DNA of 51,925 nt, taken from assembly GCA_028703035.1 (NCBI GenBank), contig JAQVNR010000001.1:1-51925 (forward strand). Reading direction: 5' to 3'. The DNA comes from Bacilli bacterium (GTDB lineage: Bacteria > Bacillota_I > Bacilli_A > RF39 > UBA660). A program made the translations under genes and the position numbers. This document shows positions 3,982 to 38,501 of this stretch, piece after piece (position 1 is the stretch's first letter; each line of letters begins with the position of its first letter). Under the pieces are notes generated by a model that was given only the letters and a program-made list of their open reading frames with translations, did not search any database and had not been told where the DNA came from.

Positions 3982-4866
3982 ATGGCCGATGATGATTTTT
4001 ACTTTGAAGAAAGTAATCCTAAAAAAGTTTTTTTAACTATTTTACTTATATTATTTATTATCGGGGTTTTATTTGGTATATATAAATATATTGCTAAAAG
4101 AGACTTTATTAAATTAAATAATGTTGAAGTCGAATTAGGTAGTGCTGTATCTACAGATATCAAAGATTATATAAAAAGCGGTAAGTATGAAGGCTATACT
4201 TTAGATGTATCAAATGTCCATTTAGATAATGAAGGATTGGCTGACAGTATTGGTGAATATAGTTTTACAGTTAAGAAAAACAACAATATATTAAAAGGTA
4301 AAATATATGTTAAAGATACAACAGCTCCAAGAGTAGAAGTAACAGAATTAACAGTTGGTCTTAATGAAGAATTTGATATTAATGATTTTTTAATATCATG
4401 TGAGGATTTATCTGAAGAATGTTTCGTAACTTATGCTAGTGATAAAGAAAAAAAATATAATCAAGCCGAAGGCACTTATGATATTACTTTAAAAATTAAA
4501 GATAAATATAATAATGAAACAACTAAAACTACTAAATTAATAGTTAAAGAAGGTTTTTCATTAGCTGATTTAAAAGCAACTAATAATGATGCTACTAATA
4601 TATATCCAGTTGATGATGATTGGGATGAGACTTATACTTTAAAATTTTCAAGAGGAATTTCAGAAGAAGATGAAGAATTCGAAGCAAAGATTTTAGAACT
4701 TGCTAAACATGATTTTTCTGAATATTATGAAGAAACAATTAAAAATCAAACTATGATAACTATTTATAATAAATATAACTTTGTTTTGGGATTTAGTATT
4801 AAATTAGAGTTTGAAGATGGGAATATTATCTATGTCCCAGAAGATGTAAAGAAAAACGAGGATTAA
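3982..4866 (+). CDS. Membrane-anchored protein with Ig-like extracellular domain
   Basis: ATG at 3982 preceded by GAGGTGG; N-terminal TM helix; DTTAP...GTYDITLKIKDKYNNE resembles bacterial Ig-like domains. Confidence 0.55.
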   Translation: MADDDFYFEESNPKKVFLTILLILFIIGVLFGIYKYIAKRDFIKLNNVEVELGSAVSTDIKDYIKSGKYEGYTLDVSNVHLDNEGLADSIGEYSFTVKKNNNILKGKIYVKDTTAPRVEVTELTVGLNEEFDINDFLISCEDLSEECFVTYASDKEKKYNQAEGTYDITLKIKDKYNNETTKTTKLIVKEGFSLADLKATNNDATNIYPVDDDWDETYTLKFSRGISEEDEEFEAKILELAKHDFSEYYEETIKNQTMITIYNKYNFVLGFSIKLEFEDGNIIYVPEDVKKNED

Positions 4867-5588: not shown

Positions 5589-7517
5589 ATGTTTAACAAA
5601 AAAAGGTTGTTTGTAGCCGGAGCATTTATAATTGCACTTTTATTTATGACAATGTATGCTGGAAACATTGGTGAACAAGGAACAACCCCAATGCGTATTG
5701 TGAAGTTTATTGATGGCTTTAATAGTGCTGAAATAAACACGCAAAATATTGAAGTAGGAGGAAAGGCAGAAGTACCAAAAGACCCTGAACATGAAGACTT
5801 ACTATTTATTGGTTGGTATAATGGTGATACAAAAGTTACAGAATTTGAAAATATCATGAAAGACTTAATAGTAACATCTCAGTATGTAGATGATATTAAT
5901 AATAATGGAATAGCCGACTCAGCAGAAAATACTTATACCATAACATTTTTTGATACTCTTGCTGGTGCTAATATTAGTGATGTTCAAGTTTTAACTGGAA
6001 TGAACGCAACTGCACCAACAGCACCAGTACATGAAAATCATACATTTACTGGCTGGTCAAGAGGTTTTACTAATGTAACATCTAGTTTTACAGTCAATGC
6101 ACGTTATAGAACAACAGAAGCAATTGCAAGTCCATCGAACACATTAAGTAAAAATACTTATACAGTTGCAAAAAATGATAGATATGAATTTAACAGTTGG
6201 GATGCAGAATTAACTAATGAAACTAAAGTTGAAGGAGATACTACATATACAGCTAATTTTAAAGATATTAAAAAACCAACAGTAGAAATCCAAAATGTAA
6301 GTAAGTATAATCCAAAATCATTTGATATTTATGCAACAGATTTAGAATCTGGATTAAAAAGAATAGATTATTCATTATTTATTAATGATAATACTGACTA
6401 TTTAGGTGGCGATGGTCAATGGATAGAAGGTAGTGTTTATGAATTTGAACAAAGAAATATTACAGAATATTATAGTTTAGAAAAAGTAAAATATTTATTT
6501 GAAGACTTATCAGTTGGCGAATATACTTTGAGAGTAACAGTAAGTGATAACGAAGGAAACACTACACATGCTACTAATTTTAATTTTGAAGTTGATAAAA
6601 TAACACCGGAATTTAATTTAACGACTGGATATCACAATGATGATGATATTCAAATTATAATAACTGAGAAGAATTTCTCACAAGTTAAAATATACAACCA
6701 AGATACTAACAAGACTATTATTGAAAAAAATTTGGCATTTACATTAACTGAAGAAGCAACTTATAGATTAACAGCAAAAGATAAAGCAGATAATGAAACA
6801 ACTATTTGGGTAGCAATAGATAAAACTAATCCCGAAATTTATAATAATGATGAACCTATAATTAATGATTCATACTATAAAGAAGATGTAGTTCTTAATA
6901 TTCAAGACAAGTTTTTACAAACTGTAAAAATCAATGGACCTATTGAAAAATCCTTAACTAGAAGTGATTTTGAAGTTGGAAAAAATAAAGAAAACTTCTC
7001 TTACAGTGAAATCTTAACTGAAAGTGGAAATTATGAAGTTATTGCTAAAGATAAATTTGGTAATACAACAACTATAAACTTTGTTATTGATAAAGAACTG
7101 CCAAGTGGTGAAGTAATAGATATTTGGTCAAATAACGATATAAATCAAAGATATGCAACAAAAGGAAACAATGTATCAGTTAGATTTAGAACTACTGAAG
7201 AAATTCAAGAAGGCGAAACTAATATGATGATAGCTGGGATTGAAGTTGAAAATGTATTAAAAAAAGATTCAAGCAATCCAGGAGAAAATGTTTATCAAGG
7301 TACAATAGTTGTAACAAAAAATACACCAGAAGGTTTAGTAGTTTTTAATATAGAAGTCACAGATTTAGCAGGGAATGTAGGAACAATACCTACAACAGTT
7401 AATTCTGGACACACTGTAACAATTGATAGAACAAATCCGATATTAGAAGAATCAGATATTATCATAGATTATTTTAACCCAAAAACATTTAGTTTTACCG
7501 CTAGTGATGAATATTGA
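5589..7517 (+). CDS. Surface protein, N-terminal part (Listeria-Bacteroides repeats + Ig-like repeats); ends at in-frame TGA
   Basis: Signal/anchor helix; FxGWY/FTGW repeat motifs; repeated DxxGN Ig-like modules; GGGAGGG RBS. Confidence 0.75.
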   Translation: MFNKKRLFVAGAFIIALLFMTMYAGNIGEQGTTPMRIVKFIDGFNSAEINTQNIEVGGKAEVPKDPEHEDLLFIGWYNGDTKVTEFENIMKDLIVTSQYVDDINNNGIADSAENTYTITFFDTLAGANISDVQVLTGMNATAPTAPVHENHTFTGWSRGFTNVTSSFTVNARYRTTEAIASPSNTLSKNTYTVAKNDRYEFNSWDAELTNETKVEGDTTYTANFKDIKKPTVEIQNVSKYNPKSFDIYATDLESGLKRIDYSLFINDNTDYLGGDGQWIEGSVYEFEQRNITEYYSLEKVKYLFEDLSVGEYTLRVTVSDNEGNTTHATNFNFEVDKITPEFNLTTGYHNDDDIQIIITEKNFSQVKIYNQDTNKTIIEKNLAFTLTEEATYRLTAKDKADNETTIWVAIDKTNPEIYNNDEPIINDSYYKEDVVLNIQDKFLQTVKINGPIEKSLTRSDFEVGKNKENFSYSEILTESGNYEVIAKDKFGNTTTINFVIDKELPSGEVIDIWSNNDINQRYATKGNNVSVRFRTTEEIQEGETNMMIAGIEVENVLKKDSSNPGENVYQGTIVVTKNTPEGLVVFNIEVTDLAGNVGTIPTTVNSGHTVTIDRTNPILEESDIIIDYFNPKTFSFTASDEY

Positions 7518-35305: not shown

Positions 35306-35911
35306 ATGAAAATAGATAATTCGATTTTAAGTGTAATTGCTGTAAGAATTAGCCAGTATCCTGAAGACAACAAACCTGAATTTTTATTAGTTGGTAGAAG
35401 TAATGTTGGTAAAAGTAGTTTTATTAATTCATTATTAGGTCGAAAAAACTATGCTAGAACCAGTAGTAAACCAGGTAAAACTCAAACTTTAAACTTTTAT
35501 TTATGTAATGATAATTTTTATTTAGTAGATGTACCAGGTTATGGTTATGCATCAGTTGATAAGGCGACTCAAAAAAAGTTTGGCTTAATGATTGAAGAAT
35601 ATTTAAAAAATAGAGTTAATTTAAAAAGAGTATTTATGATAATTGATGGCCGGATGAAAGCAACCGAAAACGATTTAATTATGTATAATTATTTAAAACA
35701 TTATGATATAAAAGTAACAGTAGTTGCTACTAAATATGATAAAATCAAACCAAAAGATCGTAATAAAACATTTAAAAGTGTTAAAAACAGTTTAAATTTA
35801 GTTGATGAAGATAATTTAGTATACTTTTCAAGTGTTACTAAAAAAGGCCGTGAAGAAATTTATGGAATTATTTCTAGCACTTTAAATGATGGAGATGCTA
35901 ATGGAAAATAA
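35306..35911 (+). CDS. engB: Ribosome biogenesis GTPase EngB/YsxC
   Basis: GRSNVGKSSFIN, KPGKTQ, DVPGYGYA, TKYDK. Confidence 0.9.
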   Translation: MKIDNSILSVIAVRISQYPEDNKPEFLLVGRSNVGKSSFINSLLGRKNYARTSSKPGKTQTLNFYLCNDNFYLVDVPGYGYASVDKATQKKFGLMIEEYLKNRVNLKRVFMIIDGRMKATENDLIMYNYLKHYDIKVTVVATKYDKIKPKDRNKTFKSVKNSLNLVDEDNLVYFSSVTKKGREEIYGIISSTLNDGDANGK

Positions 35912-36350
35912 AAATGGTTTTACTTTAGTAGAAATACTTGCGGTAATTATTGTTTTGGGATTAGTTATGGCGGTATCAGTTCCCTCATCAATAACAATTG
36001 GTAATAAAATTAAAGATAAATTACTAAGTGATAAACTTGCTCTTGCTGAAAAATCGGCTGTCTTATGGGGGCAAGATAACCGAAGCTGTTTTTCTGGTAG
36101 TGGGTGCTTAGAATACCCTGAGACAATGGATAGTGTTTGCTCACTTAGCGGTGATTTAAAAACTTGTTATATAACTTTAGAAATGCTTGCTGAAGATGAG
36201 TACTATGATTATGATAATGAAAGCAAGATTGAAAATCCTAAAGATTCAGAAAAATGCTTAAATAATTATATTATAAATTTAACTTATAATAAAAAAAATA
36301 AATCATTTAAAACAACTATGGATTTAGATAATCAAGATTCATCATGTTAA
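35901..36350 (+). CDS. Prepilin-type N-terminal cleavage/methylation domain protein (orphan pseudopilin)
   Basis: MENKNG|FTLVEILAVIIVLGL class III signal; ATG 35901 after GGAG. Confidence 0.7.
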   Translation: MENKNGFTLVEILAVIIVLGLVMAVSVPSSITIGNKIKDKLLSDKLALAEKSAVLWGQDNRSCFSGSGCLEYPETMDSVCSLSGDLKTCYITLEMLAEDEYYDYDNESKIENPKDSEKCLNNYIINLTYNKKNKSFKTTMDLDNQDSSC

Positions 36351-36461
36351 AAGTATAGTATTTGGATTCTAAATGTGGTATATTATTTATGCAGTTAGTT
36401 ATTGTTTTATAATTAATTGTTTAATATTACATATAATATTAATGCTACACTATGTAGTTCT

Positions 36462-36580
36462 AAAAAAGCGAGTGAAGCCAGCTCTATAAATGGCAGCTAA
36501 AAAAGTGAGTGAAGCCAGCTCTATAAATGGCAACTAAAAAAGTGAGTGAAGCCAGCTCTATAAATGGCAGCTAAAAAAGT
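36462..36580 (+). ncRNA. Type III antitoxin RNA (ToxI/antiQ-like): 3 complete 37-nt tandem repeats plus a partial fourth
   Basis: Units at 36462, 36499 and 36536 differ at 2 positions; no ORF; immediately upstream of a terminator and a ToxN-family gene. Confidence 0.8.
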
Positions 36581-36614
36581 AAGATTAGAGAGCAACCTCT
36601 AATCTTTTCTTTTT
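36581..36614 (+). terminator. Rho-independent terminator between antitoxin repeats and toxin gene
   Basis: AAGATTAGAG / CTCTAATCTT 10-bp stem, 6-nt loop, TTCTTTTT. Confidence 0.75.
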
Positions 36615-36652
36615 ATTAAAAATATTGTATAATTATAAGTGGTGATTTAATA

Positions 36653-37162
36653 ATGTATAAAACCTTTAAAATAGTAAAAATTAATTCTGATTATTGTGAT
36701 TATCTAAGAAATTTTGATAATAAAGTACCTTTTAATGCTGGTAAAAAAGAATTGCGACCATTTATTGGTGTGTTGTTCATGATTGAAAAGTTTGAATATT
36801 TTGCTCCACTTGCTAGCCCAAAGCCAAAACACAAAAAATTAAAAAACACTATAGATTTATTAAAAATAGAAGATGGTATTTATGGGGTTATCAATTTTAA
36901 TAATATGCTTCCAGTTGCTAAAGGTAATTATCAAGAGTTTGATTTAAATAAAAACACAAGCAATAAAGAAGAAATGTTTAGAATAGAATTATTAAGAAAT
37001 CAATTACGATTTTTAACTGCAAATAGAACTGATGTATTAACAAAATCAAAGATATTATATAAACTTTATAAAAACAAAAAATTACCTAAAAATGTAGAAG
37101 ACAGATGTTGTAATTTTATGTTGCTTGAAAAGAAATGTAAAGAATATAATAAATTATGTTAA
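36653..37162 (+). CDS. ToxN/AbiQ-family type III toxin endoribonuclease
   Basis: 169 aa; YLRNFDNKVP, FIGVLF..YFAPLASPKPKH, GVINFNNMLPV, RCCNFMLLEKK align by eye with ToxN/AbiQ. Confidence 0.8.
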   Translation: MYKTFKIVKINSDYCDYLRNFDNKVPFNAGKKELRPFIGVLFMIEKFEYFAPLASPKPKHKKLKNTIDLLKIEDGIYGVINFNNMLPVAKGNYQEFDLNKNTSNKEEMFRIELLRNQLRFLTANRTDVLTKSKILYKLYKNKKLPKNVEDRCCNFMLLEKKCKEYNKLC

Positions 37163-37190
37163 AATTTAAATAGAAAATGGAGGGAAATAG

Positions 37191-38501
37191 ATGAGAAAAA
37201 CTGTCTGTTTAATAGGTAGGCCTAATACTGGCAAATCCAGTTTATTTAACCGCTTAATTAAAGAAAAAAGATCAATAATTGATGATGAGGCAGGCATTAC
37301 AAGAGATCGAATATATGGAATAGTTAATTATGAAGATAAAAGTTTTCATTTAATCGATACCGGAGGGATTGATTTAGCAGACGCGGACTTTAGTCATAAT
37401 ATTAAAATGCAAGCTGAACTAGCAATTGATGAATCTGATGTAATAGTTTTTGTAATTGAAGGAAGATCATCACTTACTAGTAATGATTTAGAGATTGCTA
37501 GCCTCTTAAGAAAAAGTAATAAAAAAATTATAGTTGCTGTTAACAAACTAGATGATAAGGCTCATGATAAAGAAATATATAATTATTTTGAATTAGGTTT
37601 TGATGCATATATTCCTGTATCGGCCGAACATAATAGGGGAATAAAAGAATTACTTACAGAGATAACTAAAGATTTTAATGATTATTTAATAAAAGAAGAT
37701 GAATCTATTTTAAAATTTAGTATTATTGGTAGACCAAATGTTGGGAAAAGTTCTTTAATAAATGCTCTTCTTAATGAAGATAGAGTAATTGTTTCTGATA
37801 TACCAGGAACAACTAGAGATGCTGTTGATACTCGTTTTTCTTATGAAAAAAATGATTATATAGTAATAGATACGGCTGGGATGCGAAAAAAAGGCAGAAT
37901 ATATTACAACATCGAAAAATATAGTTTAATAAGAAGCTTAAAAGCAATTGATAGATCAGATGTCTGCGCGATCATAATTAATGCTGAAGAAGGTATAATT
38001 GAACATGATAAACATATTGCTGGCTACGCACTGGACGCAGGTAAAGCAGTTGTTCTAGTTGTTAATAAGTGGGATAAAATTGATAATAAAGATAAAGCGA
38101 TGAAACAGTGGACTAAAAATATTCGGGATAACTTTCAGTTCATGCCTTATGCAAATATTGTATTTTTATCTGCCTTAGAAAAAAAGCGAATTCATACTTT
38201 AATGCCTGAGGTTATAAAAGCATACGCATCAGCTACTAAAGAAGTTAAAACTTCAGTTTTAAATGACTGCATTAGAGAAGCGGCGCTTCTTCATCCAGCT
38301 CCGAGTTATAAATCACAAAGGCTTAAAATATATTTTGTCCATCAAGCTGGAACTAAACCACCAAAGTTTGAGTTTTCAGTCAATAATAAAAAACTAGTTC
38401 ATTTTAGTTATGCAAGATATTTAGAAAACAAAATAAGAGAATCATTTGATTTTACTGGAACCCCAATAATTATTAAATTTTCAAATCGAGGTGAGAAATA
38501 A
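37191..38501 (+). CDS. der: GTPase Der (EngA)
   Basis: Two G-domains (GRPNTGKSSLFN, GRPNVGKSSLIN) plus a KH-like C-terminus. Confidence 0.93.
   Translation: MRKTVCLIGRPNTGKSSLFNRLIKEKRSIIDDEAGITRDRIYGIVNYEDKSFHLIDTGGIDLADADFSHNIKMQAELAIDESDVIVFVIEGRSSLTSNDLEIASLLRKSNKKIIVAVNKLDDKAHDKEIYNYFELGFDAYIPVSAEHNRGIKELLTEITKDFNDYLIKEDESILKFSIIGRPNVGKSSLINALLNEDRVIVSDIPGTTRDAVDTRFSYEKNDYIVIDTAGMRKKGRIYYNIEKYSLIRSLKAIDRSDVCAIIINAEEGIIEHDKHIAGYALDAGKAVVLVVNKWDKIDNKDKAMKQWTKNIRDNFQFMPYANIVFLSALEKKRIHTLMPEVIKAYASATKEVKTSVLNDCIREAALLHPAPSYKSQRLKIYFVHQAGTKPPKFEFSVNNKKLVHFSYARYLENKIRESFDFTGTPIIIKFSNRGEK

Follow-up and report, generated by a model that had tools for sequence, protein, structure and literature searches.

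A probable ToxIN-family type III toxin-antitoxin cassette upstream of der in an uncultured Bacilli bacterium

What occupies the 0.83 kb that separate a pilin-like gene from the essential gene der in the chromosome of an uncultured Bacilli bacterium, and is it still at work? The window, that is, the whole stretch of 51,925 nt analysed here (contig JAQVNR010000001.1, positions 1 to 51,925 of the forward strand; GenBank assembly GCA_028703035.1), carries at this place a set of short tandem repeats, a hairpin, and an open reading frame (ORF). An earlier note, made from the sequence alone, took them for an unannotated type III toxin-antitoxin module of the ToxIN/AbiQ kind inserted between engB and der. 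Our analysis gives us high confidence that the stretch is an intact, selectively maintained ToxIN-family type III toxin-antitoxin cassette. The features that carry this conclusion are the following, all on the forward (+) strand.

36353..37179, +, the entire mobile ToxIN cassette, delimited by blastn alignment to the copies in loci L003-L006 and L008
36462..36572, +, ToxI-like antitoxin array of three full 37-nt units (Tandem Repeats Finder, covariation, arrays in relatives)
36573..36580, +, partial fourth unit AAAAAAGT, 8 nt (read from the sequence)
36581..36615, +, intrinsic terminator with a 10-bp stem AAGATTAGAG / CTCTAATCTT, a 6-nt loop and the tail TTCTTTTTA (folding, conservation)
36653..37162, +, toxN, a 169-aa putative endoribonuclease toxin of the ToxN/AbiQ family, stop codon included (Pfam, PADLOC, structures)

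The identity of the protein is attested by several independent comparisons. The 169-aa ORF, which begins 38 nt after the T-run of the terminator and contains the three peptide motifs quoted in the earlier note, matches the Pfam family ToxN_toxin (PF13958) along its full length, residues 6-165 aligning with positions 2-159 of the 159-position profile with a score of 158 bits (E 2.8e-46) where the cutoff is 25; the ToxN/AbiQ assignment is thereby upheld by profile search. No other Pfam family matched the ORF and no NCBIfam model matches the toxin, and the AbiQ model of PADLOC recognized it at 3e-35. Among proteins of solved structure, sequence matches were obtained to 4ATO from B. thuringiensis (9e-22), 2XD0 from P. 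atrosepticum (1e-16), 7D8O from E. coli (2e-15), and 4GLK, which is AbiQ (6e-5). The same four structures were the top four found by Foldseek with an AlphaFold2 model of toxN (predicted local distance difference test score, pLDDT, 80.4; predicted template modelling score, pTM, 0.76), with TM scores of 0.76-0.78 and probability 1.00, and MazF-like toxins ranked far below CptN (TM 0.56). The protein collection holds 1922 homologs of the toxin, and NCBI already gives the nearest of them (89% identical) the name 'type III toxin-antitoxin system ToxN/AbiQ family toxin [Bacilli bacterium]'. Thus the description of the module as unannotated can stand for the RNA only and falls for the toxin.

The repeats were recovered by Tandem Repeats Finder (TRF) at 36460-36580 with a period of 37, 3.3 copies, 96% matches, no indels, and a score of 228. 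Together with direct reading of the sequence, this bears out the claim of three head-to-tail 37-nt units (36462-36498, 36499-36535, and 36536-36572) and a partial fourth that differ at two positions only. The unit can be written as A6-GY-[GAGT]-GAA-[GCCA]-[GCTC]-TATAAA-[TGGC]-ARCT (Y = C/T, R = G/A), and the two variable places in the window, unit positions 8 (C/T) and 35 (G/A), both fall outside the helices proposed below. All unit boundaries carry an A6 tract, and so do the two ends of the array, ahead of unit 1 and behind unit 3. The known cleavage sites of the ToxN/AbiQ family are AA/AU, A/AAAA, and A/AAA (PMC5086642), and the A-rich boundary fits them, as had been suggested; the partial fourth unit would be the source of the A-tract that permits excision of the third. 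The repeats are also left unexplained by any protein: no ORF of at least 40 aa crosses them, and their 37-nt period is not a multiple of three. ORFs of 24-38 aa over the repeats were dismissed as mechanical, and the longest of these small frames (38 aa, 36373-36489) was rejected as a gene, being open only in the nearest relatives, reduced to 7 aa in locus L014, and starting with an ATG that lies within a -10 region.

For comparison we used 86 loci with relatives of the toxin that are 55-89% identical. According to TRF, 82 of them have an array upstream of the toxin, with a period of 34-37 nt in 81 and of 52 nt in one; about three copies are present in 74 of these 82 loci. In the relatives the array is always on the toxin strand, with a promoter upstream and a terminator downstream, so that the array-terminator-toxin order, previously recognized in the window as ToxIN architecture, recurs in almost all of the set. 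The consensus units fall into two classes, the 37-mer of the window type, AAAAAAGYGAGTGAAGCCAGCTCTATAAATGGCAGCT, and a 35-36-mer, AAAAAAGCGGTGAATCCAGCCATAAATTGGAACTT. Since the unit consensus is identical in loci with toxins only about 69-74% identical, and synonymous sites of the toxin are near saturation (dS 0.8-1.9), the repeat RNA is itself strongly constrained.

Several loci depart from the common pattern of the array. The 52-nt period belongs to locus L048 (1-375), which has 7.2 copies of a unit resembling the usual one with an insertion after helix 2. In the Oribacterium locus L033, the exact consensus unit of the window is repeated 6.2 times, and the array stops about 49 nt short of the toxin start at 4001; the array of L020, with 4.3 copies, stops about 114 nt short of its toxin start at 2803. 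In two Erysipelotrichaceae metagenome-assembled genomes (L038, 3666-3837; L040, 3738-3907) the array follows a tRNA-Ile(GAT)-tRNA-Glu(TTC) pair by about 9 nt. Because this leaves no room for a promoter between the tRNA pair and the array, the antitoxin of these two loci may be co-transcribed with the tRNA operon and processed out of it.

Whether the repeats act as RNA can be judged from their pattern of substitution. We propose that each unit forms an H-type pseudoknot in which helix 1 joins unit positions 9-12 and 20-23 and helix 2 joins positions 16-19 and 30-33. The stems have 4 and 4 bp, and the loops have 3, 0-1, and 6 nt. Group I, as Blower et al. 2012 define this ToxI template, has two interleaved stems of 3-4 bp and loops of 3-4, 1-2, and at most 7 nt (PMC3401426), and the layout here fits it. 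Covariation was assessed on 37 distinct consensus units, padded with N and anchored on the invariant GTG and the TGG-type motif; this alignment replaced a first one made with MAFFT, in which the two unit classes were out of register at helix 2. The pseudoknot pairing is kept in 91.6% of cells, a share that drops to 17-52% once the 3' partners are shifted by 1-3 columns, compensatory changes occur at three pairs, and the covariation score is 0.269 against 0.092 +/- 0.015 after shuffling (0 of 500 shuffles reach it), figures that lean somewhat towards structure, the alignment being hand-anchored and the loci related. Among 70 distinct individual copies, pair 2 of helix 1 is GC in 57 and AU in 11, and the outer pair of helix 2 is UA in 32, GC in 25, CG in 5, AU in 2, and a wobble in 5. 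The slid-register control and the variety of pair types are hard to explain without a pseudoknot, and the covariation supports an interleaved two-helix fold of the ToxI type for the 37-nt unit. Each of the computational checks put forward in the earlier note gave a result in its favour.

Some observations nevertheless weigh against the interpretation as a working ToxIN cassette, and they are gathered here. For the RNA, the Rfam ToxI family (RF02519) gave no match in 36200-36800 even at E <= 10, only sub-threshold chance matches to other models being returned; nested minimum free energy (MFE) folding was unremarkable, both for single units and for the array as a whole (z about 0); and the covariation figures have the lean just described. 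For the protein, the residue aligned with the catalytic Thr52 of ToxN is Ala54, and ToxN residues Tyr29, Trp57, Asn79, and Phe88 have no conserved counterpart. For the locus as a whole, we infer transcription, processing, toxicity, neutralisation, and phage defence by analogy with studied members of the family.

The first two points on the RNA would fit a different explanation, in which the repeats are DNA-level elements, such as iterons, operators of a regulator, or a recombination site, and the ORF is a solitary RNase. The lack of an Rfam match agrees with it, as does the fact that a single unit folded alone is no stabler than its shuffles. The folding result is expected and uninformative, because a pseudoknot is invisible to nested folding. 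As for Rfam, RF02519 scores the three units of the B. thuringiensis plasmid pAW63 at 59, 47, and 40 bits; the window RNA has the ToxI architecture but lies outside this family as it is now built. The compensatory changes, which keep two interleaved helices, would be hard to account for by anything but RNA structure. Moreover, the array always stands on the toxin strand between promoter and terminator, its A-tract boundaries match the family cleavage sites (PMC5086642), the layout is identical to that of the crystallographically defined B. thuringiensis ToxI, and no DNA-binding protein is encoded in the cassette. We regard the DNA-element explanation as very improbable.

The points that concern the protein raise the question of whether the toxin is alive. 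The published active-site residues of ToxN are Lys33, Thr52, Ser53, and Lys55, plus Gln117 (PMC5086642, PMC8860590), which correspond in the window to Arg35, Ala54, Ser55, Lys57, and Gln117, respectively. Three of the four core residues are thus kept if Arg35 is counted for Lys33 (arginine also replaces this lysine in E. coli clusters 4 and 5), and the Thr52 equivalent is substituted. An alignment of 16 sequences of the clade shows no variation at Arg35, Ser55, Lys57, and Gln117. At position 54, the window and the three relatives nearest to it (P0001, P0002, P0007) have Ala, and the other 12 have Ser.

The locus could accordingly be a decaying or catalytically dead remnant, its toxin inactivated by a Thr/Ser-to-Ala change at position 54 and its repeats persisting by inertia. 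In E. coli ToxN, Thr52Val abolishes toxicity (PMC8860590), and the alanine is confined to the sub-clade of the window with serine elsewhere. On the other hand, AbiQ is an active RNase with Leu at the Thr52-equivalent position (PMC5086642), and its essential Ser aligns with Ser55 of the window protein; because of this, we read Ala54 as compatible with toxin activity. The ORF is intact, and pairwise dN/dS values of 0.08-0.25 (21 pairs among seven clade members) indicate that toxN is under purifying selection; even among the members with Ala54 (the window compared with L001 and L003) the ratio is 0.10-0.16. In addition, the repeats, the terminator, and the promoters are all intact and highly conserved, and Ala54 has been retained in cassettes that moved to other contexts. 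A dead remnant is therefore improbable in our estimate, if somewhat less so than the DNA-element explanation, and an intact ToxIN cassette is preferred to both.

The element between array and toxin has the properties of an intrinsic terminator. Its stem arms occupy 36581-36590 and 36597-36606, and its predicted folding energy is -13.6 kcal/mol compared with -4.3 for shuffled sequences (z = -4.6; 0 of 200 shuffles as stable). The scanned region has four terminator-like sites, this hairpin among them, where shuffles lead one to expect 0.2. A hairpin with a T-run lies between array and toxin in 80 of 83 loci, in keeping with the 10-bp-stem terminator reported after the repeats. The core of the stem, GATTAGAG/CTCTAATC, is conserved, and among its variants are compensatory ones, for example GACTAGAG/CTCTAGTC. 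We also noted that this core is kept across toxins only 55-89% identical, which is beyond the generic need of a terminator. The hairpin is part of a longer inverted repeat with 19-nt arms (36572-36590 and 36597-36615, 84% complementary), and the A-tract of the partial fourth unit is able to pair with the T-tract of the terminator, lengthening the stem.

How the cassette came to lie where it does is suggested by its copies elsewhere. It fills the complete gap from the stop codon of the upstream gene to the ribosome-binding site of der. Aligned by blastn with loci L003-L006 and L008, whose toxins are 83% identical to that of the window and whose flanks are unrelated, the similarity covers exactly 36353-37179, with 84% identity over this interval. 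Because the same unit thus occurs in unrelated genomic contexts, the cassette is mobile. No target-site duplications, terminal inverted repeats, or flanking repeats were found around it, and its base composition does not differ from that of the flanks. A search of the cassette DNA against a phage collection gave no match and one against a plasmid collection gave only a 71-bp match to Fusobacterium; the best plasmid-borne relatives of the toxin are only 33-46% identical as proteins, and a scan of viral contigs for the toxin clade returned only two distant relatives (41-44%).

In the window the gene immediately before the cassette is the following.

35886-36350, +, pilin-like ORF of 154 aa with a prepilin N-terminal methylation/cleavage motif (Pfam N_methyl; weak N-terminal matches to GspG, ComGC, and ComGD)

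This ORF, which shares 26 nt with the 3' end of engB, occupies the space from there to the cassette; loci L001 and L007 have it too (81% aa identity), and more distant relatives lack it between engB and der. The window shares with L001 and L007, both from uncultured 'Bacilli bacterium' genomes, the gene order PBP1A, recU, engB, pilin-like gene, ToxIN, der; identity in these genomes is 90-91% for the module and 82-88% for the flanks. In L087, a distant relative, engB lies right next to der. A gap of 1.4 kb separates the two genes in L089, L091, and L093; in L089, the one examined, it is filled by two unrelated ORFs. A Der-based metagenome scan, which returned only relatives about 62% identical, did not reveal an empty site in close relatives. 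Because engB and der adjoin in L087 and enclose unrelated ORFs in L089, the interval is variable, and insertion is a fair description of how the cassette stands in it. The claim that the module is an insertion wedged between engB and der therefore survives, given the unrelated contexts and the adjacency in L087; direct contact of the module with engB does not, the pilin-like ORF lying between them.

At its other end, the toxN stop codon is only 28 nt from the der start, a gap without a terminator (37156-37191), and an extended -10-like sequence, TGTTAAAAT (37156-37164), overlaps the stop codon. In L001, about 73 extra nt follow toxN (6517-6611), including a hairpin and a T-run. Because the gap in the window is short and has no terminator, transcription of the essential gene der may be coupled to the cassette there.

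This position bears on what the cassette does for its host. The same module could serve not in phage defence but as a selfish addiction or stabilisation element, or as a stress growth-arrest switch beside der. Consistent with such a role, B. thuringiensis ToxIN is described as promoting plasmid retention (PMC4615649); as it travels between contexts, the cassette is a minimal unit of 0.83 kb; its neighbours in the window are housekeeping genes and not a defence island; and the terminator that separates toxN from der in L001 is missing here. The surroundings of other copies argue in the opposite direction. In L003 (6661-12507) they include an ASCH-domain gene, Fic, HamA with a DEAD/ResIII helicase (Hachiman-like), and a phage-type integrase, and in L004 (6661-12507) ASCH, Fic, DUF6994, DUF4268, an integrase, and a Mob_Pre relaxase; both look like mobile or defence islands, and HamA with its helicase, Fic, and integrase in the former and Fic and integrase in the latter are typical of defence islands. 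Furthermore, P. atrosepticum ToxIN and AbiQ, the members of the family that have been studied best, act by abortive infection (PMC5086642). The one role does not exclude the other. Pure addiction is the main alternative, and we give a role other than phage defence distinctly less than an even chance; what is known of the family, and the islands around the copies in L003 and L004, make phage defence plausible.

The regulatory signals of the cassette, with which its expression can be considered, are listed below.

36356..36384, +, candidate promoter P1 with a weak -35, TAGTAT (36356-36361), and TGTGG-TATATT (36374-36384) (sequence, relatives)
36432..36437, +, candidate promoter P2, a perfect TATAAT within the conserved motif (T)GCATATAAT (both unit classes)
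36444..36458, +, leader hairpin GCTACA-CTA-TGTAG(T), adjoining the first repeat (read from the sequence)
36628..36633, +, candidate toxin-proximal promoter P3, a perfect TATAAT with a weak -35, TTTTCT (36605-36610) (enrichment in relatives)
36641..36645, +, Shine-Dalgarno-like GGTGA, 7 nt before the ATG (sequence)

P1 has a 17-nt spacer, TGTGG being counted in it, and a TRTG-type extended -10; the extended -10 itself, TGGTATATT at 36376-36384, had been suggested as a possible promoter of the operon and coincides with an element conserved across loci. Many related loci have TTGACA/TAGACA-N17-TGnTATATT upstream of the array, to which TGTGGTATATT (36374-36384) corresponds in the window. P2 has no good -35 in the window, and its context, TGCATATAAT, is the -10 context of the canonical TTGATT-N17-TATAAT promoter upstream of pAW63 ToxI. 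Hairpins of the GCTAC-N-GTAGC type, with varying loops, occupy the same place as the leader hairpin in many loci; this hairpin would be the 5'-terminal stem-loop of the transcript if P2 is its start, and a second, proximal promoter giving a hairpin-capped precursor is plausible. More generally, the leader of about 70 nt (36385-36461 in the window) is conserved and contains a ACATAAGTGATTATGT hairpin in many loci (degenerate in the window), GCATATAAT, and the GCTAC-N-GTAGC hairpin; it could represent tandem promoters or a structured 5' leader.

A further signal lies behind the terminator. From the TATAAT of P3 it is 23 nt back to the terminator stem and 19 nt on to the start codon. An exact TATAAT occurs in 49 of 74 distinct 60-mers preceding the toxin start, against 13.5 +/- 3.1 expected from dinucleotide shuffles, an enrichment whose statistics are inflated by the relatedness of the loci and by AT-rich sequence. 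The positions peak at -25 and -31, and in several divergent loci the distance from the terminator stem is constant at about 23 nt. In some loci such a TATAAT is accompanied by a canonical -35 or an extended -10, namely TTGACA in L020, TGTGGTATAAT in L036, and TTGTAT-N17-TATAAT in the second unit class. It is absent from pAW63, pCV56A, and the Fusobacterium plasmid, where the terminator abuts the ribosome-binding site (RBS), and likewise from about 12 members of the clade. The start codon itself is preceded by GGTGA or GGAGG at the matching place in related loci.

Type III loci have been described as single-promoter operons with about 90% termination (PMC5086642, PMC4147584). Because a conserved -10 follows the terminator here, it is uncertain that the terminator alone sets the ratio of RNA to toxin, as the earlier note had assumed. 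That toxN of this clade has a promoter of its own after the terminator, so that antitoxin and toxin are two transcription units, is a tentative idea that we hold to be rather unlikely. If true, a separate toxN promoter, a structured leader, possible tandem upstream promoters, and a near-fixed array of three units would make up a distinct regulatory design of ToxIN, departing from the textbook single-promoter operon in which about 10% read-through of the terminator sets the ratio.

Taken together, the anatomy of the locus, the homology and fold of its toxin, the covariation of the RNA, the mobility of the cassette, and purifying selection are established by this analysis. In the mechanism that we propose by analogy, P1 and/or P2 would give a precursor RNA with three and a bit 37-nt repeats; most transcripts would end at the terminator (36581-36615) and the remainder would read through into toxN, which a weak promoter of its own (-10 at 36628-36633) might also drive. 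The ToxN endoribonuclease would cleave the precursor inside the A6 tracts at the unit boundaries, and each freed 37-nt unit would take the shape of an H-type pseudoknot with helix 1 GAGU/GCUC and helix 2 GCCA/UGGC. The pseudoknots would bind toxin monomers head-to-tail, with the single-stranded A-rich tails occupying the active sites of neighbouring toxins, and the result would be a closed, ring-shaped inactive protein-RNA complex. Upon transcription shut-off or RNA loss, for instance during phage infection, the labile RNA would decay and free the toxin, which would then cleave A-rich RNAs and cause cell arrest or death, in abortive infection or in addiction. Precursor cleavage, the closed complex, and toxin release follow the family model (PMC5086642, PMC8860590). 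We speculate that the near-constant number of three units supplies the RNA for one 3:3 complex per transcript.

The module is a well-known kind of self-poisoning and anti-phage device, and nothing known about type III systems is overturned here. What is gained is a ToxIN locus with good support and a large set of loci for comparison, from uncultured low-GC Bacilli and Clostridia that are poorly studied and come mostly from gut metagenomes. The set defines a clade of ToxI RNAs with units of 35-37 nt and clear pseudoknot covariation that is missed by the current Rfam ToxI model; therefore genome annotation names the toxin and leaves the antitoxin invisible, and a new covariance model could make it visible. 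The natural variation among Ala, Ser, Thr, and Leu at the Thr52-equivalent position bears on the catalytic mechanism, and the conserved -10 after the terminator bears on how the ratio of toxin to antitoxin is set in type III systems.

Among known systems, CptIN and TenpIN are built on the same overall logic as the window cassette, combining an endoribonuclease toxin with a repeat RNA and a terminator (PMC3401426, PMC5086642). Their repeats, CptI and TenpI, are as a rule longer (PMC3401426), and CptN is a distant structural match (E 1.4e-3, against 1e-10 to 1e-12 for ToxN/AbiQ). Membership in these families was rejected, the TM score of CptN being only 0.56 and PF13958 the sole Pfam match.

AbiQ/antiQ of L. 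lactis (4GLK) is closer. The PADLOC AbiQ model matches the window toxin (3e-35), the folds agree (TM 0.77), and AbiQ likewise lacks a Thr before the essential Ser, whereas sequence similarity is weak (E 6e-5, 22% identity). The antiQ-like unit of pCV56A (35 nt, AAAAAGCGGTGAATCTCCACC...) shares its 5' half with the second unit class of the clade; pCV56A has a single canonical promoter and a terminator followed directly by the RBS. The ToxI/antiQ-type units of the Lactococcus plasmid pCV56A and of the Fusobacterium plasmid have in common with the clade units the 5' motif A-run-G-N(1-3)-GGTG(A/T)A.

The ToxIN systems of P. atrosepticum pECA1039 and of E. coli (2XD0/2XDB/2XDD and 7D8O) have toxins of the same Pfam family and fold as the window (E 1e-16 and 2e-15; TM 0.77-0.78). 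The equivalents of Lys33 (as Arg), Ser53, Lys55, and Gln117 are kept in the window, and the antitoxin is likewise a pseudoknot with A-rich tails. Identity with the window toxin is 28%, and Tyr29, Trp57, Asn79, and Phe88 are without counterpart. Cleavage occurs at AA/AU in P. atrosepticum, GAAA/U in E. coli, A/AAAA in B. thuringiensis, and A/AAA for AbiQ (PMC5086642, PMC8860590); the unit boundary of the window, CU-AAAAAA-G, is nearer to the sites of B. thuringiensis and AbiQ than to those of P. atrosepticum and E. coli.

Finally, the best solved sequence relative of the window toxin belongs to ToxIN of B. thuringiensis pAW63 (4ATO; RF02519), with E 9e-22, 33% identity, and TM 0.76. The two differ in that the window unit has 37 nt and the pAW63 unit 34 nt, the window RNA being too divergent for RF02519; in the Thr52 equivalent, which is Ala in the window and Thr in pAW63; in the -10 between terminator and toxin, which only the window has; and in location, the window cassette being chromosomal and pAW63 a conjugative plasmid. 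Just upstream of the pAW63 toxIN promoter, outside the window, a 21-nt direct repeat (GAAATGTAAGTTGAAAATGTGT, 1.9 copies; 330-370 of locus L098) may be an operator. Both systems have the gene order promoter, about three repeats, terminator, toxin, and the promoter context TGCATATAAT is common to them. The pAW63 ToxI unit, A6-TT-[GGT]-GTA-[ACCT]-T-[ACC]-GTAGT-[AGGT]-GCT, has in common with the window unit the A6 tract, a helix 1 of 3-4 bp, a 3-nt loop, a 4-bp NCCN/NGGN helix 2, a junction of 0-1 nt, a loop of 5-6 nt, and a short tail.

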